Positions 25,748-40,723 of a stretch of 64,000 nt of DNA are shown in pieces (position 1 is the stretch's first letter; every line of letters begins with the position of its first letter). A program made the translations under genes and the position numbers. The stretch lies in assembly GCA_052326305.1 (NCBI GenBank), contig JBKQPJ010000015.1, positions 35,208 to 99,207 on the forward strand. Direction: 5' to 3'. A model generated the notes under the pieces. The model made no database searches, was not told the DNA's origin, and saw nothing but the letters and a program-made list of their open reading frames with translations. This DNA comes from Thermoplasmata archaeon. GTDB taxonomy: Archaea; Thermoplasmatota; Thermoplasmata; Lutacidiplasmatales; UBA184.

Positions 25748-26455
25748 ATGGCCGCCGGCGAACCCGACCTCTACGCGGCCGAGGGCCCGGTGGGCGTCGT
25801 CGTCATCCATGAGGTGTTCGGGCGAGACGAGTACGTCGGCTCGGTCGGGCGCGCGCTCGCCACCGCCGGCTTCGCCGCCGCGACGGTCGACCTGTACCAC
25901 GGGCGCCACGCCGGGACCCTCGACGAGGCGCTCGCCCTCCGCGGGGCCCTCGACGAAGGCACGGTCCTCTCCCAGCTCGACGCCGCGGGGGCGGCCCTGC
26001 GCTCGATGCCGCGGCCACCGACGCGCGTCGGCCTCCTCGGGTTCTGCATGGGCGGCGGGTTCGCGCTGCTCGGGGCGTGCCGGCGGCCGTTCGACTTCGC
26101 CGTCGACTACTACGGGCGGATCGACCGGGCGGAGGAGATCGACGGGGCCGTGGGGCCCGTCCTCCTGCTCCTCGCCTCCGAGGACGAGCGCGTCACGCCG
26201 TGGGCGTTCTCGGAGCTCCTTCCGGCGGCACGGAAGTCGAAGAAGCGGGTCACGGTCGAACTGTACCCCGGGGTCCGGCATGCTTTCCACCGACCGGGCT
26301 GGGAGGGGCACGATCCCTCGGCGGCGCGGGATGCGTGGAGCCGCACCCTGGGTTTCCTGCGGGAGCAGCAGCCCGGCGGCGGGAGCGGCCGTTCCGGACG
26401 CGACGGCCCGCGCCGCTCGGCGCGCCAGAGCGTGCGGCACGGGCATCGTAGTTAA
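25748..26455 (+). CDS. Dienelactone hydrolase family protein
   Basis: MAAGEPDLYAAEGPVGVVVIHEVFGRDEYV... matches DLH layout with a GFCMGGG nucleophile elbow. I place the start at the internal ATG at 25748 of ORF 25316..26455. Confidence 0.75.
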   Translation: MAAGEPDLYAAEGPVGVVVIHEVFGRDEYVGSVGRALATAGFAAATVDLYHGRHAGTLDEALALRGALDEGTVLSQLDAAGAALRSMPRPPTRVGLLGFCMGGGFALLGACRRPFDFAVDYYGRIDRAEEIDGAVGPVLLLLASEDERVTPWAFSELLPAARKSKKRVTVELYPGVRHAFHRPGWEGHDPSAARDAWSRTLGFLREQQPGGGSGRSGRDGPRRSARQSVRHGHRS

Positions 26456-26479
26456 ATCCTCCCTGGACGGGCCATTCTC

Positions 26480-27838
26480 CTACTGCCCTGCCGATTCCCC
26501 TACAAGCATAGCGGATGGGGCTCCGGCAGGGGCCGGACCGCTGAGGAAGTCGGGCATGACTCCGTGCTCGAAAATCTCGTGGATTAGGACGGTCAGGTTG
26601 TAGGCCAGGATCTTCGCCAACAGCTCGTTGACCTGGGCTGTGGGATTCTTGGATCGTAGCGTCTCCCCGAACTTCCGCTTGAGGGCCGAGAAGACTGACT
26701 CCACATTCGACCGAGCATGGTACTTGGCCTCGAACTCCTCCCGGTGCATCTGGAAGAACAGGTACGCCTTGCGCCATAGAAGCGAATGGCTGCGGGCGCG
26801 CGCCTCCGGTGTTCCGCTCCTCAACGTTGTGCGACCGGTTTGATTGGACCGGAACGGAACGTAGAGGTCGAAACCCATCTCTTCAGCGAGTGCGTAGTTC
26901 GCCCGCGCCGAATACGCCTTGTCACCGAAGACTTCCTTGAGGCAAAGACCCGCCTTCGCTGCCTGCCGGATGAGCGGCTCGAACTGTGGATTGTCCGCTC
27001 CCTCCTTTCCTGTCACGGAAACCGCGGCGATGATGTGTGTCTTGACGCCGGCGAGGGCATGGGCCTTGATCCAGAGGTGTTCCCGCTTCTCCCCGTGCTT
27101 TTCCTCTCTCCACGCGCCGAACGAGGTCGTTTGGATGCCCGTCGAGTCAGGGGCGAAGCCACTTTCCAATGCCGCGACCGGGAGGGCCGACCGTGTGATG
27201 AGTTCGTGCAGTATCGGGGTCACATCCTCCCTATTCAGGACTTCCGAGGAGATCGTGTAGTGCGGGGCCTTCGGCAACTGACCCCGCTCGACGGCGAAGC
27301 CGAAAAGACCCCTCGCCCGCCGGCACGAAAGCTGCGAATAGACTTTCTGGACTGAGCAAAAGAGTTGATCCGCGAGCGCAATCGGCGGCCGCCCGGCGTG
27401 GTGGGGATCCCTCTCCGGCTCGGGGATACCCACGACGAGGTCCCGGAGAAGAATGTCGAAGAGACGAATCTCCTCTGTTTGCGCCCGGTCGTACGCCGCC
27501 CATGCCTGGGGGTAGGTGAGCGGAACTCGCTCGGAGACCGTCTCGCCCGAGGGGAGAGTTGTCTGCTTTTCGAGGTAGAACCGAACGGATGCTGCATGCT
27601 TGCAGGGCAGGCCACGCGAGGAGTAGTCCTGGCAGGAACACTCGGGACCCTTCTCGGCGAGATGCACTCGGTACGAACCCGGTCCGCTCTGAGACTTGAC
27701 CAGGAAGAGATCATCACGCACTTGTTCAATGGCTCCGGGAGTCGCTGCGATGAGCCTGCCCTTCGCGACCCGATCAGCGTCGATACTCCAGCCCCCCCAC
27801 CCCGAGGCTGGACTCGGCGGGCCCTCCAGACTCTGCAT
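26480..27838 (-). CDS. DDE transposase (IS4/IS5-like DDE_Tnp_1) with N-terminal SWIM-type zinc finger
   Basis: Contains CSCQDYSSRGLPCKHAASV (SWIM CxCx(n)CxH), DKAYSARANYALAEEMG, and YHARSNVESVFSALKRKFGETL (R..VE..F..LK). Start is uncertain: the Met at 27838 is preferred and Mets at 28000 and 28231 are alternatives. Confidence 0.75.
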   Translation of the reverse strand: MQSLEGPPSPASGWGGWSIDADRVAKGRLIAATPGAIEQVRDDLFLVKSQSGPGSYRVHLAEKGPECSCQDYSSRGLPCKHAASVRFYLEKQTTLPSGETVSERVPLTYPQAWAAYDRAQTEEIRLFDILLRDLVVGIPEPERDPHHAGRPPIALADQLFCSVQKVYSQLSCRRARGLFGFAVERGQLPKAPHYTISSEVLNREDVTPILHELITRSALPVAALESGFAPDSTGIQTTSFGAWREEKHGEKREHLWIKAHALAGVKTHIIAAVSVTGKEGADNPQFEPLIRQAAKAGLCLKEVFGDKAYSARANYALAEEMGFDLYVPFRSNQTGRTTLRSGTPEARARSHSLLWRKAYLFFQMHREEFEAKYHARSNVESVFSALKRKFGETLRSKNPTAQVNELLAKILAYNLTVLIHEIFEHGVMPDFLSGPAPAGAPSAMLVGESAGQ

Positions 27839-27886
27839 CGTTCCTCCCCACCTACCGTTGCCTACGTGTAGGCTATGGGCCTGCCG

Positions 27887-27893
27887 ATATAAA
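27887..27893 (-). promoter_or_regulatory. Strong TATA (ATATAAA) upstream of the transposase, flanked by two gcctacgtg direct repeats
   Basis: The sequence reads gatataaagg. cgcctacgtg occurs at 27859-27868 and 27902-27911. The first copy is part of the palindrome GCCTACGTGTAGGC at 27860-27873. Confidence 0.45.
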
Positions 27894-27971
27894 GGTGTAT
27901 CGCCTACGTGGGCGCCAACCCATAGGCTATAGTTAAGTAGCCGACCCCCCGTCAAGGAGATTGGAGAGTCC

Positions 27972-28178
27972 GTGCCGGGAATCTTCAGGTCCCCAATCAT
28001 TCTCGTCCGCGAGAAGTCACCCTCGGTCCGCGTGACGATCCCCGAGGGTGTCGCCAAGGCCCTCGGAGCAGAGCCCGGTAAGGACTTGGTTTGGACGCTC
28101 GACCTCAAGGCAGGTTGGGTTACGGTCTCGGCGGAGCCGCCTGAATTTGCTCCCAAGAATGCGTCCAAGCGACGCTGA
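27972..28178 (+). CDS. AbrB/MazE-like (SpoVT/AbrB swapped-hairpin) small DNA-binding protein
   Basis: 68 aa with a GTG start. VRVTIPEGVAKALGAEPGKDLVWTLDLKAGWVTV matches the AbrB-type pattern. Confidence 0.45.
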   Translation: MPGIFRSPIILVREKSPSVRVTIPEGVAKALGAEPGKDLVWTLDLKAGWVTVSAEPPEFAPKNASKRR

Positions 28179-28319
28179 ACCCAAGCCCGACCCGCGGGCC
28201 CTTGGCGCCGCCGATTCCCGTCAGAGCGCACGAAGAACTAGCTCGGAGGCATTGAAAGGACTTTCCTTCCAAAGGAAAGTGCCTAATAGGAAGGTTGTGT
28301 TAGGAATGTCGATTAGAAC

Positions 28320-28676
28320 ATGTCAGCCTCGACAGGAGCGCAGAGACTATTCTCCCAGACGTTCCTTCAAGAAGCGTTGGCTCAGGAAGTTCATCGACTA
28401 CTGTCACTTCAGTACGCCCGAGGGATTCTCGAGGCGCTAGACGAACATCACGAGGGGCTGGACGTCAGGTGGTTTGATGTCAAGGTTGTCGGCGTTGAAG
28501 GGTCGGGCAGGACTGCGTACGTAGTGGTCAAGAAGCTCTCCGCCGCCGGTTGGATATCTTCTAGGGCAGGCACCAAGCCCCAGCGTTGGCTTCTAACCCC
28601 GAAGGGGAAGGAAGCACTGGATCTCGCTCGTCAGGGAGATTCCATAGGAAACGGGGGGCGGGGGCCCGCTAGATGA
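28320..28676 (+). CDS. Putative winged-helix regulator translationally coupled to the C5-methyltransferase
   Basis: 118 aa. Its stop overlaps the methyltransferase start as ATGA. The C-terminal WISSRAGTKPQRWLLTPKGKEAL looks like a wing. Confidence 0.4.
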   Translation: MSASTGAQRLFSQTFLQEALAQEVHRLLSLQYARGILEALDEHHEGLDVRWFDVKVVGVEGSGRTAYVVVKKLSAAGWISSRAGTKPQRWLLTPKGKEALDLARQGDSIGNGGRGPAR

Positions 28677-29923
28677 GGGGGAATCGGTTCGGGTTCGTCG
28701 ACCTCTTTTGTGGAGCGGGCGGGTTTGCCGAGGGGTTCCTACAGGCCGGGACCGACCGTTCGGAGTTCCAACTGCTCGCGGCCTCGGATGTGCATCGCCA
28801 CGCGCAGGCAACTCACGAGTACCGATTCGGCACTCAGCTCGGTATCCCGTACCGGTTCATCCGGAAGGACATCAGGGACCCGGGCCTCCTTCCTGAGGTC
28901 CGCGAAGCGGTTTCATTAGGGTCCGAAGTCGATGTGGTTTGCGGTGGCCCACCCTGCCAGGGATTCTCGGTCTTCGGCGCAAGGCGCCGGGACGACCCGA
29001 GGAACGATCTGTTCCACCCCTACCTACAGATAGTGCATGCGCTCAGGCCGCGATACTTCGTCATGGAGAACGTGCCCGGCTTCGTCTACATGTATCGGGG
29101 TATGGCCGAGCAACGCATCCGCGAGGCGGTCGATAGCCTGAGGCGGCCTGGTTACACCCTAGCGGGACCGATCTTCGTCAATGCGGCGTCGTTTGGGGTT
29201 CCCCAGTCTCGGGAGCGGGTCATCTTCCTGGGATCGCGCGATGACCAACCGAGGATCGGCTCGGTGCCGGTGCCCGAGGGCATCCACTCCCCATCGGTGG
29301 GGGAGGCGATTTCGGACCTCGCGTTTCTCGGGTCGGGCATGAAGGCAATCGACTATGATCCCCGGTTCCCCCCGGCTTCCGATTACCAGAGGGACTCCCG
29401 TCTCGGCCGGTCCAAGACGCGACCGACTTGGGACGGCAGGCTCCAAAACCACGAGTCCTCGCGGCACACTTCCAGGGTCCTGACACGGTTTCGGCTCGTT
29501 CCGAAAGGGCACTCGACCAAGGATGTGAAAGAGGTGCTGGTCCGCGAAGGGGTCGACTCCGGCAAGAAATGGTGCGTGCGCATTGACGATGCCGACCCGT
29601 CCTTCACGCTCACGACCATTCCGGACGACTTCATCCACTACTCGCAGGACAGGAGCCTGACCGTGCGTGAGTGTGCGCGCCTCCAGTCCTTCGATGATTC
29701 GTTCGTGTTCCTCGGTCCCCGGACAACGGGTGGCGGAGGCGCGGGAAACAAGGTGCGGAACACCGATCTTCCCCAGTATACACAAGTCGGAAACGCCGTG
29801 CCACCGCTAATGGCGCGGGGCATCGCGTTGACGCTTCTCAGGAATCTGGAGAAGACATCCGCTCACCCAGATGGGCCCGAACGACCTTCAGGAACCGCGC
29901 GAGTTCCTTTGGTCGCGGTCTGA
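28673..29923 (+). CDS. DNA (cytosine-5)-methyltransferase
   Basis: Motif I FCGAGGF, motif IV PPCQGFS, motif VI ENVPGF, and a C-terminal QVGNAVPP are present. Confidence 0.9.
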   Translation: MRGNRFGFVDLFCGAGGFAEGFLQAGTDRSEFQLLAASDVHRHAQATHEYRFGTQLGIPYRFIRKDIRDPGLLPEVREAVSLGSEVDVVCGGPPCQGFSVFGARRRDDPRNDLFHPYLQIVHALRPRYFVMENVPGFVYMYRGMAEQRIREAVDSLRRPGYTLAGPIFVNAASFGVPQSRERVIFLGSRDDQPRIGSVPVPEGIHSPSVGEAISDLAFLGSGMKAIDYDPRFPPASDYQRDSRLGRSKTRPTWDGRLQNHESSRHTSRVLTRFRLVPKGHSTKDVKEVLVREGVDSGKKWCVRIDDADPSFTLTTIPDDFIHYSQDRSLTVRECARLQSFDDSFVFLGPRTTGGGGAGNKVRNTDLPQYTQVGNAVPPLMARGIALTLLRNLEKTSAHPDGPERPSGTARVPLVAV

Positions 29924-30623
29924 CGTTCCCCTCCTGACCGTCGCCGAACAGGAAGAACAGGTCGCGTGCCTGGGCGGCCTCCACGATGTCAAAGTCCATT
30001 TCCTTGCGAAGGGCAGCCTGCGTTGAGAGGCAGTGGGGGTGGCCCTTCGACATCAACATCGTCCGTCCCATGAAATCGAAGAACTCCGACTGGGAAATCC
30101 TCACCTTGCTGTTGACGAGAAGAAGGGGCACGATTGACGAACCCGGCGGGAGATGGGTGACGACGTCGGCCGGCCACCGGGCAGTTTGTCTATTTACCAC
30201 CCCATCCGCACCGAGAATGTACCCGATGGCGACGTCGGTCTTCTCCGAAGGTTCTGATTGAGTCGGCTCTCCGGCCTTCCATAGCGTGTAAGTCCCGTAA
30301 GTCGTGGAGACCTCATTGAAGACGAAGAGGGAGGGCCAATCGTGCACGAACTCGAACGCCAAGTGGGTCAGGTAGTCCTGGAAGAGGGCACCGACGATGT
30401 TGCGGGACAGGTTCTGATTGAGGGAGAACTCCGTCTTCGTATTCCTCCGCCCTAGCCAGTTGTAGCCGTCCACGAGTTCCGTCAAGTGTTCTGAAGGTGC
30501 GCGCCCTGCTCGGACATCGTAGCATGATTGGATCTTGGCGAGCCTCATCGCTAGCTCGTCATGTCCGGGCGTCCCGTCATTGACGAGCACCTCGCGAATA
30601 TACACCGACAGCAGATGGGCCAT
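29838..30623 (-). CDS. Putative type II restriction endonuclease, cognate of the adjacent methyltransferase (the enzymatic call is speculative)
   Basis: 261 aa unique ORF. It is convergent with the M gene and its 3' end overlaps it by 86 bp. It has a possible D...(N/E)xK core (TDVAIGY...LLLVNSK). The call rests on position alone. Confidence 0.35.
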   Translation of the reverse strand: MAHLLSVYIREVLVNDGTPGHDELAMRLAKIQSCYDVRAGRAPSEHLTELVDGYNWLGRRNTKTEFSLNQNLSRNIVGALFQDYLTHLAFEFVHDWPSLFVFNEVSTTYGTYTLWKAGEPTQSEPSEKTDVAIGYILGADGVVNRQTARWPADVVTHLPPGSSIVPLLLVNSKVRISQSEFFDFMGRTMLMSKGHPHCLSTQAALRKEMDFDIVEAAQARDLFFLFGDGQEGNVRPRPKELARFLKVVRAHLGERMSSPDS

Positions 30624-30750
30624 CCGGGGTCCATCTGCGAATCTGTAGATAGTCGTTCACACGCCTTAGCGGCCGGTTCTGTGTCCATGTGGCAATTCGC
30701 CGGCAGGGGTGGCGGTGCGGTTACCTATCGTGCTAGACTGACCTGAAAGT

Positions 30751-31224
30751 GTGGCGGATCGGTTGACTCACGCCCAGAGGAGCCGACTGATGTCTCGAAT
30801 ACGGGGTAGGGACACGTTTCCGGAGCTGGCACTCCGGAAAGCCCTGCGCAGACGGGGAGTGCGGTACCGGTCAAACCAGCGGGTCCACGGCATCCGTGTC
30901 GATTTGGTCCTGCGGGGAACGAAGACCCTCGTGATGGTCCAGGGCTGTTTCTGGCACGGCTGCCCCCGTCACTATATCGCTCCGAAATCCAACTCCCGAT
31001 TCTGGAAGAAGAAGATTGTAGCGAACAGAGAGAGGGACCGGTGGCAGGCGGCAATCCTCAGCGCGATGGGGTGGCAGGTGGTCGTGTTGTGGGAGCACGC
31101 CCTCAGGACCGACCCGGCCCGCGCCGTGGAACGATTGATAACCACCGCGCCTCTCCCGTGTAGGGCGGCCCGGCAGGGGGATGCCGGTTACCTGTCAGAT
31201 GAGCGGGGAATGGAGATCCGATAA
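30751..31224 (+). CDS. vsr: Very-short-patch repair endonuclease Vsr
   Basis: TFPELALRKALRRRGVRYR...MVQGCFWHGCPRHY gives a full Vsr signature. Confidence 0.85.
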   Translation: MADRLTHAQRSRLMSRIRGRDTFPELALRKALRRRGVRYRSNQRVHGIRVDLVLRGTKTLVMVQGCFWHGCPRHYIAPKSNSRFWKKKIVANRERDRWQAAILSAMGWQVVVLWEHALRTDPARAVERLITTAPLPCRAARQGDAGYLSDERGMEIR

Positions 31225-33337
31225 GCAGGGCGCGGAGGTCTTCCGCCCCCGAGCCCGCGTCATCAACGTCCTCGGCCGCGACCTGATCCAGAACCCGGTG
31301 GTCGCGATCCAGGAGCTGGTCAAGAACGCGTACGACGCGGACTCCCACCGCATCCGGCTCACTTTCGAGGGACCGCTGGAGAAGGGGCTCGGCGGCCTCA
31401 CCATCGAGGACGACGGGGATGGGATGACCCTCGAGACCGTCCGCACCGCGTGGATGGAACCGGCGACGATCGCGAAGCGCCGCCAGACCCGGACCCGGGC
31501 GGGCCGTCGGGTTACCGGGGAGAAGGGGATTGGCCGGTTCGCTTCCGCCCGCATAGCCAGCCAGCTCGAACTCGACTCCGTTGCCCGGGAGAACGGTCGC
31601 CGGGTTATGGCGCATTTCAACTGGGGAGAGTTCGAGGGCGAGGACCGGTACCTCGACGAGATCCGATGCCGCTGGGAAGAAGGGGCTGCTCCTAGGGGGC
31701 GCGGCCACGGGACGATCCTTCGACTCCGGCAGTTCACCCAGAAGTGGAACGAGGAGAACCTGAGGAATCTGCGGGTCCAGTTATCGAGGTTGCTGCCTCC
31801 CACCGGACCGAAGGCAGACTTCGAGATCGGGTTCGCGGTCGGGGGAACTCTGGGGAAGCGCCTCTCGGGCCCGATCGAGAGGCCCACGTTCATCGAGCAC
31901 GCCCGCTACCAACTACGAGGTCGCGTCGAAGCCGACGGCTCGGTGACGGCGGAGGTATCGTACCGGTCGAGAAGCGAGCCGTTCGTCGAGAAGGGGGGAG
32001 CCCCAGTCCGTGTTGTCATCGAGCGGGAGGGGGAGGAGGACCGACCGCCGACATGCGGTCCGTTCGAGTTCGACATCCGTGTTTGGGACCGCGAGCCCGA
32101 GGACATGAGGGAGCTCGCCAAAGCGGCCGGGTCGACCCTCAGGGACGTGAGGATGGACCTCGACGAGCTGAGCGGGCTCCAAGTCTACCGGGACCGGTTC
32201 CGCATCGTCATGCAAACGCGGGATTGGCTGGGCCTCGACCTTCGCCGGGTCCAGAATCCTAGCCTACGCCTGAGCAACAACCAGATCGTAGGTCACGTCC
32301 AGATCGAATCCGACCGGAACACCGGGCTCGTGGACCAGTCCAACCGCCAGGCGCTCGTAGACAGCCCGCAGCTCGACGACTTCGAGGAAGCAATCCTGTT
32401 CCTGCTCAACCGCCTGGAGGTGTTCCGGCGCCTCAAGAGGCGGAGCCCTGAGAGACCGCCGCCCCGTGCCAGCCTGCTCGAAAAGTTCAACCTGACCGAA
32501 CTCCAAGACTACGTAGCGAAGTCGGACCACTCCAAGGACGAGAAGCTCACCTCCATCATCCAGTCGACGGCGGCCGGAATCAAGACCGGCCTCGGCCAGG
32601 TCCGGGAGATTGTATCACGCTACCGACGCCTGGCAACCCTCGGTACCCTCGTCGACGTGATTCTGCACGAAGGGCGGACGCCCATCGCCGCGATCTCCAA
32701 TTCCGTGGAGATTCTGAAGAAGAGCCTGGCCGGAGGACTCCCCGCACGCGAGGCCGCCGAGGTCAAGCACCAGCTCGATGTGGTCGACCACCAGGTCCAA
32801 GTCCTAACCCAACTCTTCGACCGGGTGGCTCCGTTCAGCGGACGGGCCCGGGGCCGCGTCGAGGTAGCCCCCCTGGAGGACATCATCGCTCGGGCGTTCG
32901 CGGTTCACGCCGGTAGGATCGAGAAGGAGGGGGTGCGGGTCGAACTGCCGTCGGGGCAGACAACCATCCGGATGGACCCCATCGATTTGGAGCTCCTCTT
33001 CCTGAATCTCATCGACAACGCCCTCTACTGGCTACAGAAGGTCCCTGCGGGAAAGCGAGCCATCCGGGTAGAGGTGGCCCGAACCGATGGTAGGGTCGAG
33101 GTCGTGTTCTCAGACAGTGGACCAGGGGTCCAACCGGAGATTGCTGACATGATCTGGGACCCCTGGTTCACCACGAAGCCGGGGGGGATCGGCCTCGGGC
33201 TTACCATCGCCGGGGAGACGGCCGCCGAGCACGACGCGACCCTAGGTCTCTCCGAGAAGGGCCCGCTCCCGGGCGCGACGTTCGTTGTCACCTTCAACTC
33301 TCCCGGCGGTGAAGCCACCCGCGAAGGAGTGGAGTAG
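31181..33337 (+). CDS. Fusion protein: N-terminal paraMORC/MutL-like GHKL ATPase (HATPase_c_3-type) plus C-terminal histidine kinase (HisKA + HATPase_c)
   Basis: The N-terminal GHKL has an N-box (IQELVKNAYDAD), G1 (IEDDGDGM) and G2 (GEKGIGRFASA). The C-terminal region has an H-box (HEGRTPIAAISNSVEIL) and a classical kinase ATPase (FSDSGPGV...GGIGLGLTIA). It overlaps the vsr 3' end by 44 bp. Confidence 0.8.
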   Translation: MPVTCQMSGEWRSDKQGAEVFRPRARVINVLGRDLIQNPVVAIQELVKNAYDADSHRIRLTFEGPLEKGLGGLTIEDDGDGMTLETVRTAWMEPATIAKRRQTRTRAGRRVTGEKGIGRFASARIASQLELDSVARENGRRVMAHFNWGEFEGEDRYLDEIRCRWEEGAAPRGRGHGTILRLRQFTQKWNEENLRNLRVQLSRLLPPTGPKADFEIGFAVGGTLGKRLSGPIERPTFIEHARYQLRGRVEADGSVTAEVSYRSRSEPFVEKGGAPVRVVIEREGEEDRPPTCGPFEFDIRVWDREPEDMRELAKAAGSTLRDVRMDLDELSGLQVYRDRFRIVMQTRDWLGLDLRRVQNPSLRLSNNQIVGHVQIESDRNTGLVDQSNRQALVDSPQLDDFEEAILFLLNRLEVFRRLKRRSPERPPPRASLLEKFNLTELQDYVAKSDHSKDEKLTSIIQSTAAGIKTGLGQVREIVSRYRRLATLGTLVDVILHEGRTPIAAISNSVEILKKSLAGGLPAREAAEVKHQLDVVDHQVQVLTQLFDRVAPFSGRARGRVEVAPLEDIIARAFAVHAGRIEKEGVRVELPSGQTTIRMDPIDLELLFLNLIDNALYWLQKVPAGKRAIRVEVARTDGRVEVVFSDSGPGVQPEIADMIWDPWFTTKPGGIGLGLTIAGETAAEHDATLGLSEKGPLPGATFVVTFNSPGGEATREGVE

Positions 33338-33340
33338 ACG

Positions 33341-34432
33341 ATGGCGGCCGCACCCATCCCGGCTCCCGCCGGCGATTCCTGGCGGATCGCAGTCGTGGAG
33401 GATGAGGAGGATATCCGGGGGCAGATTTGTCACTGGCTGGGGAGGATGGACCCGGTCGAGGGCAAGTCGTTCCAACCCACCCCGTTCCCGGACTTCGACG
33501 GGGCCTGGGCTGGGCTCATGGATTGGAAGTTCGACATTGTCATCCTCGACATCTTCCGAGGACACGGGGGAGTGCCTGCCAGCCCGGGGCTCGATATCAT
33601 GGAGCGAATCAAGCGGACCGCCTTCGTCCCGCTCATCGTCTACACCGCGCTCCCGGAGCGGGTCACGGGACTTCGTTCTCCCATGGTTCGCGTTGTGGGC
33701 AAGGTCTCGGGCCTGGGTGCCCTAGAAGGCGAGGTCCGGCAGTTCCTCGCGTGGCGATTACCCCAGCTCGCGCGGGCGCTGAGAGCCACGTTCGATGACA
33801 CGCTTCGGGACTACATGTGGAGGTTCGTGGACGCCCACTGGGATCGGTTCGAGTCGATGGTCGACAAACCGGACTTCGGACGATTGGTAGTACAACGCCT
33901 CTCGGAGGCATACACCGCTGACGGCTCGAGGGGAGTCCTAGGTGCAGCCTACGGCCCGGTGGCTACGACCGGGCCCCCCGCGGACAAGGTCCATCCCGCC
34001 TCGGTCTACGTCATGCCGGTCCCTACCGGCGTCCTCCGTCTGGGAGACATCCGCGTGCGCCGGGCAGGTGAGAGCCCACCGAAGTATCTCGTGGTCCTTC
34101 AACCGAGCTGCGATACCGTCCGGATCGCACCCGACGCAGAAGGGCAGGGTGCGAGGGACCCCAACGTCGACCGTGTCCTCTGCGCGCGGGCGTACCCACG
34201 GCCCCCGCACAAGTCGGATCACGATTATCCACTTCCGGCGTTCCTCGCGGTTCCGGACCTGATGGTCGAGTTCCACGACCTCGAGATTGCTCCGATCGAT
34301 GACCTGTTGAGTCTCGACTGTGTAGCGAGGGTGGCGAGCCCGTTCGCCGAGCAGCTCGCCGCCAAGTTCGCTGCCTACATCGGACGTATCGGAACGCCAG
34401 AGATAGAAGCGCCCCCGGCCCCTGCGACGTAG
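33341..34432 (+). CDS. Response-regulator receiver (REC) domain fused to an uncharacterised C-terminal effector domain (about 240 aa)
   Basis: The REC region reads IAVVEDEEDIRGQ...FDIVILDIFRGHGG...PLIVYTALPE, with the phospho-acceptor Asp. The C-terminal domain matches nothing I recognise. It starts 3 bp after the HK stop. Confidence 0.75.
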   Translation: MAAAPIPAPAGDSWRIAVVEDEEDIRGQICHWLGRMDPVEGKSFQPTPFPDFDGAWAGLMDWKFDIVILDIFRGHGGVPASPGLDIMERIKRTAFVPLIVYTALPERVTGLRSPMVRVVGKVSGLGALEGEVRQFLAWRLPQLARALRATFDDTLRDYMWRFVDAHWDRFESMVDKPDFGRLVVQRLSEAYTADGSRGVLGAAYGPVATTGPPADKVHPASVYVMPVPTGVLRLGDIRVRRAGESPPKYLVVLQPSCDTVRIAPDAEGQGARDPNVDRVLCARAYPRPPHKSDHDYPLPAFLAVPDLMVEFHDLEIAPIDDLLSLDCVARVASPFAEQLAAKFAAYIGRIGTPEIEAPPAPAT

Positions 34433-34471
34433 TCCAAGTTCCGAGCATAGCAGATTGTCACGTTCCGTTGC

Positions 34472-35764
34472 GTGTGGCAAACCTATTACCAGGAAGCGAG
34501 TATCAACCCCGGCGTGCGCTCTTCCGCCGATGAATGTCGCCGCCCGATTCCCTGCGGTATTGACTTGTTTTCGGGTGCCGGCGGGTTCGGCCTGGGATTC
34601 GAAGCGGCGGGCTTACCCGTCGTGGCCTCCCTAGACAAGGATGCGGATGCCGTAGCCACCCTCGCCGCGAACCCCCCCATTGGCCCCCGGCTTGTCTTCC
34701 ACACCGACATCCGTTCGTTTGGCCCATTAGCGATGGACAAAGCAATCGAGGGCCTTTCTCCCCGTTACCGAGTCGACTTCCTCATCGGCGGGCCGCCATG
34801 CCAGGGCTGGAGCAGGGTCGGACGAGGGAAGCTACGGTCACTCGGGCGTATCGGGTCCACTCCCGCGCCCTTCGCCGAGGAGCGGAACAGGTTGTATCGT
34901 CCGTTCCTCCGGTATGTGTCCCACTTCCGGCCGCGCGTCGTCCTCCTGGAGAACGTGCGGGGAATGGAGTGCTACTACGGGCACGATGGAACGAAGGCGA
35001 TCACGACAGCACTGGACTCTCTGGGGTACCGGACTAAGGTGGTTCCCCTCGACGCCGCCGACTTCGGGGTGCCCCAGCAGAGAAGGCGACTCGTTATTGT
35101 GGGCGTTAGAGAGGACCTGGGACTGGAGCTGGACACACCGATTGGCCCACCCGCCGGATTGGGCATGGATGGCGCCGCACCGACAGTCCGCGACGCGATC
35201 GGCGATCTCCCGTGGGTCCCGTCGGGGAACCAGAGGGATGTGATGCCTTACCGGAAGCTGGAGGATGCCTCTGCGTACCTCAGCCTCCTCCGCCCCGGAT
35301 GGATGAACGGCTCGGTCACTGCCCATATCACCCGGCCCCACCGCCCGGAGGACCGCGAGGCGTTCCGATCGATGAAACAAGGCGGGATCTACTCTGACCT
35401 ACCCGACCGTCTCAAGCGGTATCGCGACGACATATTTGCCGACAAATATCGGAGGTTGGAGTGGGACAAGCCCAGCCCGTGCCTGACGGCCCACCTCGCG
35501 AAGGACGGCTACTCGCACATCCACCCGAGTCAGACGAGGACGATCTCTGTACGGGAGGCGGCGAGGATTCAGGGGTTCCCCGATTGGTACGTCATAGCCG
35601 GGTCGATGGGGAGCCAATTCCGCCAGATTGGAAACTCAGTCCCCCCTCTGCTAGCGTACGCGCTCGCGATTGCTGTACGGAATTTCCTCGGAGTGAAGTC
35701 GGAAATCTCGTGGGACGTTCTATCGTGTTCCGTCTTGCAGACTGGTACGGTCACGAACGAGTGA
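34472..35764 (+). CDS. DNA (cytosine-5)-methyltransferase (second copy)
   Basis: Contains FSGAGGFGLGF, PPCQGWS, ENVRGM and QIGNSVPP. Confidence 0.9.
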   Translation: MWQTYYQEASINPGVRSSADECRRPIPCGIDLFSGAGGFGLGFEAAGLPVVASLDKDADAVATLAANPPIGPRLVFHTDIRSFGPLAMDKAIEGLSPRYRVDFLIGGPPCQGWSRVGRGKLRSLGRIGSTPAPFAEERNRLYRPFLRYVSHFRPRVVLLENVRGMECYYGHDGTKAITTALDSLGYRTKVVPLDAADFGVPQQRRRLVIVGVREDLGLELDTPIGPPAGLGMDGAAPTVRDAIGDLPWVPSGNQRDVMPYRKLEDASAYLSLLRPGWMNGSVTAHITRPHRPEDREAFRSMKQGGIYSDLPDRLKRYRDDIFADKYRRLEWDKPSPCLTAHLAKDGYSHIHPSQTRTISVREAARIQGFPDWYVIAGSMGSQFRQIGNSVPPLLAYALAIAVRNFLGVKSEISWDVLSCSVLQTGTVTNE

Positions 35765-36089
35765 ACTTGTCGCTATCATCCTGCGCGTCCAGGATCTCGT
35801 CTCCAAGTAGGAAGACAACAACGCGGCCGGTTCCAAGGTCGCGTCGTTCCCCATCGTCCAGCTCCCGCCCGAGTGCTTCGTGGGCGGAGTCGACAATGGT
35901 GTGACTCAAGACCTGCCGGCGATGGACTTGGCCGCCGCAGACAAAAACCGCCTCGCTAGGTCCGCCATTCGCGGTCGTAATCCACTTTGGTGTTGCCTTT
36001 CGCACCTCCACACGCTTGAAACCGACTCGAATCAGATCGAAGTACTTCCGACGCACCATGAAGAGGACCTTCCCGGTAACTGTGCTCAC
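35751..36089 (-). CDS. ASCH-domain protein (PUA-like fold; a candidate reader of modified nucleic acid)
   Basis: FDLIRVGFKRVEVRK matches the ASCH GxKxxExR motif. It is convergent with methyltransferase 2 and overlaps it by 14 bp. Confidence 0.55.
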   Translation of the reverse strand: MSTVTGKVLFMVRRKYFDLIRVGFKRVEVRKATPKWITTANGGPSEAVFVCGGQVHRRQVLSHTIVDSAHEALGRELDDGERRDLGTGRVVVFLLGDEILDAQDDSDKFTRS

Positions 36090-36263
36090 CCCCCTACGTC
36101 CTATCTACAGACCGGGCGTAGTTAGGGTGATTGGGGAGACACTCCAATGACGGGGGTGGGGGGGTCGGTGCGCCGGCCCCCGAAGTTCTTCTCGGAAGTT
36201 CGAACATTCTTAGTCCAATCATTCGTTTCATCTACCGCCTCGACCCGAGGCGGGAGGTGGTGA

Positions 36264-36443
36264 ATGGGAAAGGGAAGCAAGGGCGGACCGACTCCGAACG
36301 ACCAGCGATCGCGTGCGATGAACTCGCAGGACGTTGTCGGCAAGATGGCGATAGACCACCGTGCCGGACAGCTTGATCCACGCAATCCTGATTTTTCTAA
36401 GGCTCGGGCTCCGCCCGACCAAACCACTGAATCCACACAGTAG
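36264..36443 (+). CDS. Small protein (59 aa) with Shine-Dalgarno-like site; below the ORF-track cutoff
   Basis: GGAGGTG sits 6 nt upstream of the ATG. The product is MGKGSKGGPTPNDQRSRAMNSQDVVGKMAIDHRAGQLDPRNPDFSKARAPPDQTTESTQ. A hairpin+T-run (possible terminator) lies 19 nt downstream. Confidence 0.3.
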   Translation: MGKGSKGGPTPNDQRSRAMNSQDVVGKMAIDHRAGQLDPRNPDFSKARAPPDQTTESTQ

Positions 36444-36461
36444 GGGCACCGTAGCCCTACC

Positions 36462-36492
36462 GGCCCCCGGCCTTGGCCGGGGGCCTCTTTTT
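36462..36492 (+). terminator. Possible terminator: perfect 11-bp GC hairpin followed by a T-run (bacterial intrinsic-terminator-like signal)
   Basis: The sequence is ggcccccggcc-tt-ggccgggggcc-tcttttt. Confidence 0.4.
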
Positions 36493-36994
36493 CGTCAGAG
36501 ATTCGAGAGTAGGTCCCGACCCGTTACAGCGCAATTTTGACGGCCGGTAGGCCGCGACTTGTTGCAGAACCCGCGGGTAGGAAGGGTTTAGCGGTGGGGG
36601 CGCGTGTCATTGCCCTCGAATGCCGTCTAAGAAGCGCCGCGACTTGACGAGTCAGTGGCTCGTCAAGCAGGACAAGAAATCGCAGAGGCTCATCCCCGTT
36701 GGGCTGTTCGGTTTGGTTGGGGCTTGCCGCCACTTCACCATCGATTGTAAGTCAGACCGCCTTACCAACAAGGGTCCCGGAGTCGTCGCCATCGAAATCG
36801 TAAGGCTGGTGGGCCGGCGTATCGAGGTGACGCTTGAGAACCTTCCTGCTGGGCAGACCTCGGCGGTCAGTCCCTATGCGGTCCGAAACGTGGTTTGTGC
36901 GTTAGATGGATTGAGCTATGCTCTCCCGACCTTCCGAAACCCGCGAACCAAGCGTGCCTCCGACTGAGGGCGGAACTGTACCGCTATCGCGGCA

Positions 36995-38074
36995 TCACAA
37001 TTCTTGATTTTCTCTTGTAACAGCTCGTGGCTTTTGTTTCGGGTCCATCGATATCGTTGTAGCCGATTCGACTTTCACTGCCGTCGCCGGAGGCGGTGGA
37101 CGAAGCACCGGGCGTTCGATTAGGCCGACCAGGGCGCTGCCGAACATCGCTTCGAGGTCCAGGGCGTTGATTCTCTCCTGAGCGGTACTCTCGAACTCCT
37201 TGAGCGCAGGGTCCTCGGAGAACTTCTTGAGATCCCGGAAGAAGTCGCCTAGGCCGGCCTCTTCCGCCAGTCCCTCTAGCTCGGCGTCGCTCGGGAAAGT
37301 GATCATGACTCCGCCGTACGTCCGGAGTTGCGCTAGCGCGGCCTCAATGGTCAGTTTCAGCACCCCTGCGGAGGGGACTTCCTTGGGAAGGTGCTCGAAA
37401 TCTTCACTCTCAAAGACGTTGATGAAGACAGTGCGCCGCTCGTTCCCATCCACAGAGAGTATCACCATCGACTGCCGCCGAATTAGACCTCGCGCTCTCA
37501 ACCACGCTAGGTCCGAGGCAAGCCGGTCGGTGTTCTCGAACTCAACCTGTTGGATCGATTCTGCGAGTCGATCCGCAGGAATTTCCACTCGGGTCTTTTC
37601 CTCCCGGACCATGTCAGAGAACTCGGGCGGTACAATCACGCCCAACGCCCTTTTCCCCGGCTCAGGCGTTCGAAGCAGCTTGACGAAGGTGGAGTCCAAA
37701 GAACCGGTAAGTAGGCCCGAGACGACACGCTGAAGGTCGATTCTGGCGACTGTTTCGAAATCCCTTCCCTTTAGGTGAATCTCACCGGAGGGATGGAACG
37801 AGATGTGTAGACCTGCCGGCAGGAGGCCGGGCATCGGAATGACGTACTTTCCGCCATCGGTGGCCGTCACGGTTTTCAATACGCGCAGACCCGGCGAAGT
37901 AGCCCCCGGCGCGGCCGTCGTGGGCACAACCCGAAGTTCCTTCTCCCTGGACGGCATTTGCTGGGGGAAGGAATCGGACCTAAAGGATAGCTCGGAGTCG
38001 CAATACGGCTTCACTTGTCGAATCTGTTCAGTTCTCGGGATATGGCCGCCATCGGAAGCCAAGCCGTACAACAC
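36995..38074 (-). CDS. Hypothetical protein (359 aa), last gene of a three-gene island operon
   Basis: Unique composition with no motif I recognise. It lies 30 bp downstream of the preceding gene. Confidence 0.5.
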   Translation of the reverse strand: MLYGLASDGGHIPRTEQIRQVKPYCDSELSFRSDSFPQQMPSREKELRVVPTTAAPGATSPGLRVLKTVTATDGGKYVIPMPGLLPAGLHISFHPSGEIHLKGRDFETVARIDLQRVVSGLLTGSLDSTFVKLLRTPEPGKRALGVIVPPEFSDMVREEKTRVEIPADRLAESIQQVEFENTDRLASDLAWLRARGLIRRQSMVILSVDGNERRTVFINVFESEDFEHLPKEVPSAGVLKLTIEAALAQLRTYGGVMITFPSDAELEGLAEEAGLGDFFRDLKKFSEDPALKEFESTAQERINALDLEAMFGSALVGLIERPVLRPPPPATAVKVESATTISMDPKQKPRAVTRENQEL

Positions 38075-38104
38075 AACCCGAAGGGCTGAGAGGCACCGGG
38101 CATT

Positions 38105-38895
38105 TCATGCATGGGCCGTTAGGTGCTCCAAGAAGTCCTCCTTTTCCTCCCAGAAGCCAACGATGTCGGCCCGCCTCTTGAGGGTGGATACTATCGGTCC
38201 CGTCCAAACGTCGTCTTCTACTGAATCGTCCAGTAGGCAAGCAGACCGGAACTGGAGCCCCGTATCCCGAATTTCGAGGAACGCGACGATGGCCTTGTTA
38301 ACCAGTGTGCTAGCCCAACCGGAACTCAATGACGAGAAGGCATACATCAACGTCCGTGGCTGCGAAGCACTCAGAGGTTCAAGGTCGAAATCAAAGACCC
38401 AGTGTTTCCCACCGGCTCCTGTATAGTCCCTCCAACGTGCGTGCTCGATATGGGCCGAAGTCAGCCATCCCGCAACGTCGTCAGCGAACCCAAGTTTAGA
38501 TCGAGCCTTCGCCGTCATTGCGATGTGCTGGGCTGACCTCGCCGCCTCGGTGACCCGGGTGAGTGCTTCGGACAGATCACCTATCGGCGCCCTTGCTACA
38601 ATCTCACTGCCATGCGCCGACACTCCGAGCCTCCTCAGAGTGGTTTCAAAGAACCAGTTCTGGCGCGATCCCTCCTTGAGTTCCACTCCGTGGAGGAATA
38701 GGAAGCCGACTGATTCGCCCATGTCGGACAGTTCGACGGTCTGGCCACGAATCGAAATGCGCACCTGTATCGGGTCGTTGTCCTGGTTTAGGAACGGCGT
38801 GGTGAGCACACAGTCCTCCCCATCCTGCTCGACTGAGAACACGGCCTCCAAGTGAGAGAGGTACTGGCCGAGGACGCGCGTACAGTCAGTCACGG
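38105..38895 (-). CDS. Hypothetical protein (about 263 aa), middle gene of the operon
   Basis: GTG start (VTDCTRV...) preceded by GGAGGA at -8. It overlaps the upstream stop as GTGA. I do not use the track ORF's N-terminal extension out to 39115. Confidence 0.5.
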
Positions 38896-39363
38896 GAAAT
38901 CCTCCATTGACGTCTGAGTGTGGATTGGGTATGGGCCGGGAGCGATCCTGCACTCCTTTAGAAAGTCCACGAGCGCCCCGTCGGGGTCGCCCGACCTGAC
39001 TTCGGAAACCGGATAGGAGGGGCTGTCTGCGAACCTCTCGTCTGGATAGTGCTTGTGCGGTCCCTTCATACGGGAGTTCGTAACGGGGTCGAGATGGCCT
39101 GGCTTGTAATCCCACCGGCGAATAATCACGCTGTTACGAACCACCAGAGCGAATCCGTAACGATTCGGCTTGCCCGGGCTGAATTTCCTGCTTACCCAGC
39201 CTCGAATCGTCATCGGGGTTCCATCCTCACCGATGACCGGGAGCACGAGGTACCTGCTGCCGTCGGCCCTCGAATCCCATTGGACCGGACCGGCAAGCTG
39301 TTTGGGCAGCTCGTAGAGGTAGTCAGCCTCTCCCTTGCTGATAGGGGCCGCTCCCTCTGCCAT
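38890..39363 (-). CDS. Hypothetical protein (157 aa), first gene of the operon
   Basis: Non-repetitive ORF translationally coupled to the next gene. Confidence 0.45.
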   Translation of the reverse strand: MAEGAAPISKGEADYLYELPKQLAGPVQWDSRADGSRYLVLPVIGEDGTPMTIRGWVSRKFSPGKPNRYGFALVVRNSVIIRRWDYKPGHLDPVTNSRMKGPHKHYPDERFADSPSYPVSEVRSGDPDGALVDFLKECRIAPGPYPIHTQTSMEDFP

Positions 39364-39537
39364 ATCGGTTCGCCGGACGCTTCCGCTGTCTCTGAGCGCT
39401 GTTGAGCACTGGAGACATAAAGCGAGGGGTCGGAGGGGTATCGAAACGGTTTCAGTTCGGAACCAGTTCGATTTCGGGGTAGCGGCTCTTCGGCTGCGGC
39501 GCGGCCCGCTTGAGCAGCTAGTGCCACCAGAACCCCC

Positions 39538-39604
39538 GATTCTCCTACAGCCGCCAAATCCAGGCGGGAATTCTCCTACTGCCGAGGATTATCCCTACAA
39601 AGCC
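39538..39604 (+). repeat. Right-hand copy of the island-flanking direct repeat (tandem 1.5 copies); its left partner is at 26474-26510
   Basis: gattctcctacagcc...attctcctactgccgaggattatccctacaaagc is compared with attctcctactgccctgccgattcccctacaagc at 26474. Confidence 0.5.
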
Positions 39605-39698
39605 TGCGGCACGCGCACCGTTAAATAGCGGGGGCCGTACCTCGGCCCTACCCGTGAGCCGAGGATCCCCTCTGGGGGTTCCGCTGACGCGAGGCACC

Positions 39699-40070
39699 AT
39701 GGCGCGACCGATTTACGTGCGATTCGAGACCCCGAGCGACCTCGCCGACAAGGCCCTGCAGCTCGTCCAGATCGCGAGCGAGACCGGCAAGGTCCGGGTC
39801 GGGACGAACGAAGTGACGAAATCGAGCGAGCGCGCGGAAGCGAAGCTCGTCGTCATGGCGGAGGACGTCGACCCGGTCGAGATCCTCGTCCACATCCCGA
39901 TGCTCTGCGAGGAGAAGCGGATCCCGTACGTCTACGTGCCGAAGAAGCAGCGGCTCGGCCAGTCGGCCGGGCTGTCGAAGTCCGCGGCGAGCGTGGCGAT
40001 CGTGGAGGCCGGCGACGCGAAGGCGCTTCTCGACGAGATCGCGGCCACCTTCCCCACGCTGAAGAAGTGA
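39699..40070 (+). CDS. rpl7ae: Ribosomal protein L7Ae (K-turn binding)
   Basis: [12 protein letters not shown]...[12 protein letters not shown]...[10 protein letters not shown]...[12 protein letters not shown]. is a 123 aa canonical L7Ae. GTTAAATAG at 39620-39628 is a likely TATA, which leaves a 5' leader of about 50 nt. Confidence 0.9.
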
Positions 40071-40095
40071 GGGGAGGCCGGGACGGGGGCGCGCC

Positions 40096-40308
40096 ATGCC
40101 GGAAGAGAAGGGCTCGCCCGCCGAGGTCGTGGAGCTGGTCGGCCGGACGGGCATGGCCGGCGAGGCGACCCAGGTGAAGGTCCGCGTGCTCGCGGGGCGG
40201 GACCGGGGCAAGATCATCACCCGCAATGTCGCCGGCCCGATCCGCCTCGGCGACATCCTGATCCTGCGCGAGACGGCGCGCGAGGCGCGCAAGCTCTCCG
40301 TCCGCTGA
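40096..40308 (+). CDS. rps28e: Ribosomal protein S28e
   Basis: [57 protein letters not shown] matches S28e. Confidence 0.9.
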
Positions 40309-40318
40309 GGGTGGGTCG

Positions 40319-40723
40319 ATGGTCGTCAAGCGGCAGTGCTCGTTCTGCGCCCGGGAGATCGAACCCGGCACCGGCACGATGTTCGTCAAGCGCGACGGCA
40401 CGGTCTTCCATTTCTGCACCTCGTCGTGCCGCAAGCAGCAGCTCCACCTCGGCCGCGTCGGCCACCGGTTCAAGTGGACGCGGGCCCACGAGCTGAAACG
40501 GGCGGCCGAACGCTCGAGCGCCGAGCGCGCGCCCGCCGCCGCGGCCCCGTCGAAGAGGTCGTCGCGCCCGGCCCGACGCCCGCCGGCCGAGAAGCTCCCT
40601 GCCCCGGCCGTGGCCGAGACGACCCCCGCGACCCCTCCGCCGGCCGCTCCCGCCTCGGCGCCGCGGACCCGGGCGCGAAAGCCCCGGGCCGCCGCTCCTC
40701 CCCCTCCCGCGCCCGAGACGTAG
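40319..40723 (+). CDS. rpl24e: Ribosomal protein L24e with Ala/Pro-rich C-terminal extension
   Basis: CSFCAREIEPGTGTMFVKRDGTVFHFCTSSC is the L24e zinc-ribbon motif. It carries an extra low-complexity tail of about 70 aa. Confidence 0.85.
   Translation: MVVKRQCSFCAREIEPGTGTMFVKRDGTVFHFCTSSCRKQQLHLGRVGHRFKWTRAHELKRAAERSSAERAPAAAAPSKRSSRPARRPPAEKLPAPAVAETTPATPPPAAPASAPRTRARKPRAAAPPPPAPET

Follow-up and report, generated by a model that had tools for sequence, protein, structure and literature searches.

A sensor kinase and a MazF-fold response regulator beside a cytosine methyltransferase in an archaeal genomic island: a candidate methylation-coupled two-component toxin system

Proteins that join a GHKL ATPase to a histidine kinase (HK) have been noted before among restriction–modification (R-M) genes. 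The putative restriction endonuclease R.EcoUTORF4938P of REBASE was described as carrying an N-terminal GHKL domain and a C-terminal histidine-kinase domain (Orlowski & Bujnicki 2008, PMC2441816), and a later survey of 644 regions from 628 bacteria, conducted in silico only, reported HK-like genes (HATPase_c_3, HEF_HK and HATPase_c domains) and response regulator (RR)-like genes (Response_reg_2) that were 91.6% linked, with a C5 methyltransferase upstream and Vsr downstream. The authors of that survey related the HK-like kinases to the paraMORCs and left the C-terminus of the RR-like protein without assignment (Bellieny-Rabelo, Pretorius & Moleleki 2021, PMC8011034). Here we describe a pair of this kind in an archaeon. 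The window, a 64,000-nucleotide stretch of contig JBKQPJ010000015.1 of a Thermoplasmata archaeon, contains a four-gene block encoding a mismatch-repair endonuclease (vsr), a sensor kinase, an RR and a C5 cytosine DNA methyltransferase (dcm2). We propose, with moderate confidence, that the block is a methylation-coupled two-component toxin system, an R-M-like module with a phospho-relay in place of its restriction nuclease. The C-terminal effector domain of the RR has a MazF/Kid/CcdB fold, an assignment that is new as far as the searchable literature shows; we found no description of a REC–MazF fusion. A first-pass annotation of this DNA had supposed that a GHKL-kinase/REC pair between Vsr and Dcm was undescribed, a claim that the 2008 and 2021 papers overturn.

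Experimental precedent for a His–Asp relay that gates a toxic effector may be drawn, by analogy, from Detocs (DtcABC), which acts by abortive infection and whose defence is abolished by H-to-A and D-to-A mutants (Rousset et al. 2023, 10.1101/2023.01.24.525353). The window pair resembles Detocs in its His–Asp relay, its cytoplasmic kinase, the replacement of the RR's DNA-binding output by a cell-toxic effector (predicted in the window) and, as we propose, its abortive-infection logic. Unlike the window pair, Detocs employs a TPR-type sensor, a buffer REC protein (DtcB) and a PNP ATP-nucleosidase effector, and it has no methyltransferase; the window combines a MutL/MORC-type GHKL sensor with a MazF-fold effector and a linked Dcm, and has no DtcB. 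The pair is not a member of Detocs, as the block holds no third REC gene and gave no match to a known defence model.

All four genes lie on the + strand in one tight block. The first, vsr (30751..31224; PF03852 2.6e-19; TIGR00632 6.2e-33, above cut-off), encodes a very-short-patch (T:G mismatch) repair endonuclease, and its stop at 31224 lies downstream of the kinase ATG at 31181, an overlap of 44 nt read directly from the sequence. The kinase gene (31181..33337) ends with a TAG (33335–33337) that is followed, after 3 nt, by the ATG of the RR gene (33341..34432), whose stop at 34432 is separated by a 39-nt gap from the GTG of dcm2 at 34472 (34472..35764; PF00145 6.7e-56; TIGR00675 2.8e-46). 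A divergent gene upstream (29838–30623, − strand) and a convergent gene downstream (35751–36089, − strand) delimit the block, and these limits, together with the spacing, fit a four-gene operon. The first-pass annotation had the coordinates and strand of all four genes right, as well as the 44-bp overlap and the 3-bp spacing; the 40 bp that it gave between RR and dcm2 becomes 39 nt in the sequence.

Pfam, NCBIfam and PDB profile searches, combined with family conservation, divide the kinase (718 residues counted from M1) into, in this order, a MutL/MORC-type GHKL ATPase, a conserved middle region, a HisKA DHp domain and a HATPase_c catalytic (CA) domain; neither a transmembrane segment nor a classical sensor domain was detected. 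The N-terminal ATP-binding domain (residues 26–155; 31256..31645, + strand) matches HATPase_c_3 at 5.7e-19 over residues 41–155, and its Bergerat motifs are intact and conserved among 36 homologues (E45, N49, D77-G-D-G81 and G113-x-K-G-x-G118). It also matches MutL models, and MutL itself in the PDB profile search (5e-6). The second half of the protein is that of a classical histidine kinase. The DHp domain (residues 488–549; 32642..32827, + strand), with the H-box HEGRTP, matches PF00512 at 1.5e-5, just under the gathering score, and contains the phospho-acceptor H496 (codon 32666–32668), which is invariant in the same 36 homologues. The CA domain (residues 599–706; 32975..33298, + strand; PF02518 6.2e-21) retains, again throughout these homologues, the N-box N613, the G1 motif D645-x-G-x-G649 and the G2 glycines G669/G671/G673, and the C-terminal half as a whole matches solved HisKA kinases of the FixL/HK853 type at 5e-30. 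The earlier suggestion of a MutL/MORC-type GHKL domain with N-box, G1 and G2, fused to a canonical HisKA–HATPase_c core, is thus borne out, and the domain searches recognize both GHKL-type ATP sites, including the N-terminal one, whose standing as an ATPase fold had been left to such searches. With these two sites and H496 conserved, and with the residue set D21/D70/T102/K121 conserved in the receiver domain of its partner, the pair should be competent for phosphotransfer. The protein start deserves a comment: NCBI begins the kinase at V40 (679 residues). Because this choice would drop the family-conserved motif FRPRARxIxxLGRDLI, the V40 start is probably mis-called, and the protein more likely begins at M1 or M7.

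The N-terminal domain ties the kinase to R-M biology. It aligns with positions 8–185 of the 659 of NF050001, the model for the restriction enzymes BbrUII and HgiDII (4e-18), and is of the GHKL type found at the N-terminus of such enzymes, which pair with m5C methylases. The score of 65.3 bits stands against a curated cut-off of 550 bits, so that the kinase is not a full-length member of this family, whose model includes the C-terminal cleavage part. Matches in PADLOC were likewise confined to the N-terminus of the kinase, and to models of Type II restriction endonucleases; the RR had none. The window kinase shares with BbrUII/HgiDII, with the MZA ATPase MzaB and with the paraMORC families (Iyer, Abhiman & Aravind 2008, PMC2292703) an N-terminal MutL/MORC-type GHKL domain and operons that contain C5 methylases and Vsr, and it shows one mark of the paraMORCs, an N-terminal GHKL domain with intact ATPase motifs in an R-M neighbourhood. 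In those proteins the GHKL domain works in the context of a nuclease, or of an S5 domain plus a partner helicase, whereas here a histidine-kinase core takes that place, with the REC effector on a protein of its own; the part common to BbrUII/HgiDII is just the GHKL domain, roughly the first 185 of the 659 model positions.

What lies between the two ATPase domains? The middle region (approximately residues 156–487; 31646..32641, + strand) was delimited by family conservation and matched no profile in Pfam or PDB searches. Its invariant positions include W148/W189, D303, R337, R341, D348-W349, R356, Q368 and R389, and we presume that it is the transducer of the sensor or its DNA-contacting part. 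In one locus (L004, 3902–6660) a standalone protein of 415 residues, consisting of GHKL and middle region, matches kinase residues 14–432 at 7e-70; it adjoins Dcm, an AIPR gene lies near, and the kinase of the neighbouring pair is split into two open reading frames (ORFs). The sensor module thus circulates independently of the kinase core. Because the GHKL domain matches both MutL and the BbrUII/HgiDII model, and because a standalone version exists, the GHKL–middle unit resembles a movable sensor or engine of the R-M type, able to connect to various outputs, of which a kinase core is the one used here.

AlphaFold2 models built with a 40-sequence alignment (pLDDT 87.7 for the full-length protein and 89.1 for residues 138–363) and the family alignment show that the RR (363 residues) comprises a receiver (REC) domain, a long helical hairpin and the MazF-fold effector. 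The REC domain (residues 14–137; 33380..33751, + strand) has the (βα)5 receiver fold with the acidic-pocket Asp, Thr and Lys: D70 (codon 33548–33550) is the phospho-acceptor, the acidic pair is located at D21, and T102 and K121 complete the conserved set. The window sequence itself scores weakly (PF00072 E=0.045; PhoB receiver 7e-4); all 40 of 40 RR family members match PF00072, the best at 7.5e-10. Together with the H-box and the N, G1 and G2 boxes of the kinase, the REC residue set gives the pair the conserved sites of a classical two-component system. The hairpin that follows (residues 140–204; 33758..33952, + strand), defined by the secondary structure of the models and by conservation, contains a conserved RDYMW..V...W motif and the invariant residues W167 and R186; we regard it as a candidate intramolecular inhibitor or dimerization element.

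The effector domain (approximately residues 215–347; 33983..34381, + strand) resisted sequence classification and yielded to a fold search of the model. The first-pass annotation had described a REC domain with an unrecognized C-terminal module; such a module indeed exists, of about 225 residues, and the profile searches it had suggested for this part gave no family match. In a Foldseek search with the effector model, the top 50 hits were all chains of the MazF family, and the model displays the SH3-like β-barrel and C-terminal helix of the MazF/CcdB fold. On the model, we consider the fold established and its chemistry a separate prediction. Conservation within the family is concentrated at H218-P219, G235-D236, R238, P255-x-C257-D258, C281, S333-P-F-x-E337 and R349-x-G351. 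The domain differs from MazF, PemK, Kid and CcdB, as well as from the type III toxins ToxN, AbiQ and CptN, in that it has no sequence-profile similarity to them, in its fusion behind a REC domain and hairpin rather than pairing with a MazE-type or RNA antitoxin, and in an invariant H/D/C-D/R set of its own, the catalytic Arg/Thr positions of MazF apparently not being kept. A C-terminal nuclease of the PD-(D/E)XK or HNH type was considered for the RR and rejected: Pfam, NCBIfam, PADLOC and PDB sequence searches returned nothing of this sort, and the fold is that of MazF. The effector is neither a recognizable restriction-fold nuclease nor a DNA-binding regulator. In bacterial RRs, the MazF-like domain has a helical insert of about 35–40 residues separating β3 from β4 (alignment columns ~335–380), which the five archaeal-clade sequences, the window's among them, lack.

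A profile of the RR's C-terminal module identified 1,933 clusters at 50% identity, almost all of them proteins of 370–400 residues in which the module starts near residue 135. Because nearly all clusters share this length and module start, and the short match inspected is truncated, REC plus module is a fixed architecture. That match, the sole short one inspected and a candidate for a standalone effector domain, proved to be a gene cut by a contig end.

How does the pair relate to the published HEF_HK/Response_reg_2 system? The UTI89 chromosome of Escherichia coli (L067, 19001–24693) carries, in a pathogenicity island with cdiBAI on one side and the hly/cnf1 genes on the other, the genes for Dcm, a 986-residue ATP-binding protein and a 555-residue protein annotated as a response regulator receiver domain protein; with 913 sequences of the protein collection in its cluster, this RR is common in E. 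coli. Judged by architecture and locus number, the UTI89 kinase is very likely R.EcoUTORF4938P. Used as a positive control, the UTI89 proteins match PF19191 (HEF_HK) at 1.5e-25 and PF19192 (Response_reg_2) at 1.8e-29. PF19191 matched neither the window kinase nor its 120 listed closest homologues nor the ten plasmid or genome members scanned; PF19192 matched neither the window RR at E≤10 nor any of the 40 RR family members; and no match to either was obtained with 10 distant representatives or with 9 HK/RR pairs from genomes and plasmids. Membership in the two families is therefore rejected. Relatedness is nonetheless apparent, since the window and UTI89 kinases align at 2e-30 over the GHKL and middle regions and at 3e-22 over DHp and CA. 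An hmmsearch with the RR profiles misses the UTI89 RR; a domain-restricted hhalign comparison of the two RR C-termini gave E=2.9e-4 and a probability of 40% over 147 collinear columns, with the common motifs G(D/T), QP-x-CD-x-VR and R-x-G.

Both systems share the kinase architecture (HATPase_c_3, middle region, DHp and HATPase_c), an RR gene immediately downstream, an adjacent C5 methyltransferase, a frequent Vsr, a cytoplasmic location and residence on mobile islands. The window pair differs in matching canonical HisKA and Response_reg instead, in the length of its proteins (718 versus 986 residues for the kinase, 363 versus 555 for the RR of UTI89), in its archaeal host, where the published survey covers bacteria only, and in the MazF/CcdB fold now assigned, for the window's branch, to the C-terminus that was left without assignment there. 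From these sequence comparisons we conclude that the window pair is a sister branch of the published system, shorter, with canonical HisKA and REC domains, and present in archaea. We further suggest, tentatively, that the two are branches of one widespread immune or addiction class of bacteria and archaea, in which a GHKL ATPase would read the 5-methylcytosine (5mC) state of DNA, or foreign DNA, and signal through a relay to a MazF-fold toxin.

The association with Dcm extends far beyond the window. A scan of one genome per species, in which six-frame ORFs were searched with the window proteins, yielded 43 species-level loci spread over more than 10 phyla, including Acidobacteriota, Planctomycetota, Verrucomicrobiota, Chloroflexota and Actinomycetota as well as Cyanobacteriota, Bacteroidota, Elusimicrobiota, delta- and gammaproteobacterial lineages and others. 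The kinase lies directly upstream of the RR in 42 of the 43, in every metagenomic locus inspected and in all of eight RR homologues looked up individually, where a C5 methylase usually sits beside the pair. Thirty-seven loci had enough flank to be informative for Dcm and Vsr within 8 kb: Dcm is present in 31 (84%) and Vsr in 14 (38%). Gene orders are shuffled; Dcm-HK-RR (13 loci) and Dcm-HK-RR-Vsr (8 loci) are the commonest, and HK-RR-Dcm and others occur too. The window order, Vsr-HK-RR-Dcm, is unusual, its HK-RR-Dcm part being common to the closest relative (L012/L013), in which a dcm2 orthologue (3e-220) holds the same slot after the RR and whose island also has an integrase, an insertion sequence (IS) element of the same type, GmrSD-HNH and AIPR. 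The linkage of kinase, RR and Dcm is far above chance expectation, and dcm2 is the cognate modification gene of the pair. Because Vsr is found in just 14 of the 37 loci, and is located elsewhere in the closest relative, it probably does no more than accompany Dcm, as is usual, and takes no part in the signalling. The neighbourhood profiling that the first-pass annotation had called for hence reveals conserved co-occurrence of Dcm, kinase and RR across bacteria and archaea, often with Vsr; its idea of a pair wired into a 5mC cassette stands for the methylase and probably falls for Vsr as a signalling part.

These statistics also bear on the most mundane interpretation, a routine housekeeping two-component system placed between vsr and dcm by coincidence. 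The canonical C-terminal half of the kinase and its canonical REC partner would fit such a system. The conserved synteny with Dcm, however, spans phyla as well as both domains of life, and the neighbourhood statistics exclude a chance arrangement; moreover, the island that holds the block is low in GC and has an IS element, the N-terminal GHKL domain is of the R-M type, and the proteins lack a membrane domain, a classical sensor domain and a DNA-binding output. We regard this interpretation as extremely improbable: far from being found without R-M neighbours, homologues of the pair have Dcm in 31 of 37 loci and reside in mobile or defence islands.

Two archaeal, Thermoplasmata-like loci (L006, 4810–11071, and L014, 734–6998) display a different arrangement, in which the pair follows an SRA-HNH gene, of a 5mC-dependent, type IV-like kind, and a fusion of HhH-GPD to Dcm; the HhH-GPD glycosylase fusion may be a substitute for Vsr.

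Mobile elements carry the system widely. HK-RR was found in 41 Campylobacter plasmid records of ~51–75 kb, almost all typed as conjugative, with a convergent dcm where the gene table lists one and with vapD and type IV secretion genes adjoining; an example is the C. jejuni plasmid CP120305.1 (L059, 3792–8003). The Dcm/HK/RR trio is also encoded on Bacillus, Acaryochloris and Hymenobacter plasmids, and an Enterobacter plasmid has the HK-RR pair without a listed Dcm. The copy in an Enterobacterales metagenome-assembled genome (MAG) found no match by blastn in 5,426 E. coli genomes. This distribution on mobile islands and conjugative plasmids would suit an addiction module acting by post-segregational killing, in which a methylated genome keeps the MazF-like domain off and loss of the island dilutes methylation and frees the toxin. 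R-M systems are known to act as selfish addiction modules (PMC8011034), and the toxin-fold effector has no protein antitoxin; intact kinase–RR pairs without a nearby Dcm are difficult to reconcile with such a module. We consider addiction unlikely as the explanation, noting that no result here separates addiction from defence and that the two readings are not mutually exclusive.

Taken together with the features described above, we propose the following model for the methylation-coupled toxin system. The methyltransferase encoded by dcm2 would mark host DNA, and Vsr would repair the T:G mismatches left by deamination of 5mC. The cytoplasmic kinase would sense through its N-terminal GHKL ATPase and middle region, most likely by monitoring DNA, for instance unmodified target sites or invading DNA. 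Sensing would switch the HisKA/CA core, leading to autophosphorylation at H496 and transfer of the phosphate to D70 of the RR; we infer both this input and the direction of the switch, in which phosphorylation may turn the effector on or off. Phosphorylation of the REC domain would alter the state of the hairpin and MazF-fold domain, probably by dimerization and/or release from the hairpin; we propose dimerization because MazF-type toxins function as dimers. The toxic activity thus released, most likely RNA cleavage, would stop growth and abort phage replication. Alternatively, the outcome may be that loss of the island is punished. The first-pass annotation had envisaged a phospho-relay gating a nuclease or a regulator; the relay residues are intact, and the output shifts to a probable toxin because the effector has a MazF/Kid/CcdB fold.

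Several observations weigh against this model. The effector has no Pfam match at E≤10 (PF02452 and PF01845 included) and no NCBIfam match, and hhalign of the effector against an alignment of MazF, Kid, ChpBK and CcdB is not significant (E=0.64), with the register as expected (GD on β1, then β2, β3 and the C-terminal helix). In this low-confidence register, the catalytic Arg of MazF in the β1-β2 loop and the Thr/Ser at the end of β3 fall on non-conserved or different residues. Because these catalytic positions appear to be lost and the family has an invariant polar set of its own (H218, D236, R238, C257-D258 and R349), the modelled effector is at most a putative RNase and may instead serve as a binding module. 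The pair is not accompanied by a MazE-like antitoxin gene, nor is there a small antitoxin ORF in the block or a recurrent one in the related loci inspected. Dcm is missing from the 8-kb surroundings in six of the 37 informative loci, and five of the six have a pair that looks intact, which argues against a strict scheme in which unmethylated self DNA kills, unless a methylase acts in trans. Finally, the pair is not listed in PADLOC v2, and we found no functional or experimental study of it in the literature searched. DefensePredictor depicts a predicted, unvalidated system that contains HATPase and REC domains.

The apparent loss of the MazF catalytic residues is what a regulatory role would lead one to expect, with the kinase and RR controlling the adjacent R-M genes, as has been suggested (PMC8011034), and with the RR C-terminus serving as a binding module, not a toxin. 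The conserved association with R-M genes, in that survey and in our 37-locus count, agrees with such a role. MazF and CcdB are themselves co-repressors once bound by their antitoxins. The RR, however, has no helix-turn-helix or other DNA-binding domain; neighbours other than Dcm vary so widely that no constant target operon emerges; and the strongly invariant polar residues of the effector (H, D, C-D and R) would sooner be expected at an active site or a ligand site. A regulator of this kind seems to us quite unlikely.

It is also conceivable that kinase and RR together form a true Type II-like restriction endonuclease, in which the middle region or the RR effector cuts and phosphorylation licenses cleavage at unmethylated sites. 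The pair fills the slot of an R gene beside a C5 methyltransferase, with Vsr, in most loci, and the label of putative restriction endonuclease that REBASE gives the UTI89 homologue implies such a role. BbrUII and HgiDII, both genuine restriction enzymes, have an N-terminal GHKL domain homologous to that of the kinase, and the C-terminal nuclease domain of R.HgiDII, an authentic Type II enzyme, itself has no assigned fold (PMC2441816). In addition, PDB titles record MazF-fold proteins that bind single-stranded nucleic acid, DNA analogues among them. Nevertheless, the domain searches detected no PD-(D/E)XK, HNH, GIY-YIG or phospholipase D signature in kinase or RR, the structural neighbours of the effector are RNA-cleaving or gyrase-poisoning toxins rather than DNA endonucleases, homology to the restriction enzymes ends with the first 185 model positions, far below the family cut-off, and the pairs without a nearby Dcm look intact. 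We judge a true restriction enzyme to be somewhat unlikely, and favour the methylation-coupled toxin system.

The block lies in a ~13-kb island of 58–65% GC (roughly 26.4–39.6 kb; 26400–39600) within a window of ~72–75% GC, and its proteins are 100% identical to 'Thermoplasmata archaeon' MAG entries (442-kb contig). On the right, the island directly adjoins the archaeal ribosomal protein genes L7Ae, S28e and L24e (39654–40723), identified by eye; we looked for a tRNA gene and for att-like direct repeats at the island ends and found no tRNA gene and no convincing repeats. The island starts with an IS element encoding a SWIM and DDE_Tnp_1 transposase (26480–28231, − strand). Next come a small ORF with a weak PadR match (28320–28676), possibly a winged helix-turn-helix protein or controller, a C5 methylase gene, dcm1 (28673–29923), that precedes the four-gene block, and a convergent ORF of 261 residues (29838–30623, − strand) that overlaps the 3′ end of dcm1 by 86 nt. 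These three (28320–30623) appear to form a second, separate m5C system, in which the 261-residue ORF, unmatched in every library searched and in the related loci, is a candidate orphan-fold restriction enzyme. Downstream of the block, an ORF of 112 residues (35751–36089, − strand) overlaps the dcm2 stop by 14 nt; its N-terminus (KYFDLIRVGFKRVEVRK) is ASCH/PUA-like by eye, and it has no Pfam match even at E≤10 and no homologue in related loci. Because neither the 261- nor the 112-residue ORF has a homologue in any related locus, we leave both out of the parts of the system. The remainder of the island, on the − strand (36995–39363), may hold a further defence candidate: a DUF1828 protein (38105–39115) that matches the PADLOC candidate defence family PDC-M24B at 7e-24, flanked by ORFs of 359 (36995–38074) and 157 residues (38890–39363) without assignment.

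If our interpretation is correct, the system would be a second, very widespread recruitment of two-component signalling for immunity, after Detocs, and the first such case with a trigger tied to DNA methylation. A MutL/MORC-like ATPase would read the self/non-self mark of R-M systems, and the response would come from a toxin rather than a nuclease, so that the 'R' arm would consist of signal transduction and abortive infection and not of DNA cleavage. The finding bears on what prokaryotic GHKL ATPases of the MORC/paraMORC type sense, and on how GHKL-containing 'restriction enzymes' without a recognizable nuclease work. The family is large, with ~1,900 clusters at 50% identity in the window's branch alone, and since it occurs on conjugative plasmids of Campylobacter, a clinically relevant host, and, in its sister branch, in an island of uropathogenic E. 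coli, tractable hosts exist. The MazF-fold assignment makes a formerly unassigned effector, and with it the system, directly testable. Its occurrence in an archaeon would mean that a complete signalling-plus-modification cassette has been transferred across domains.

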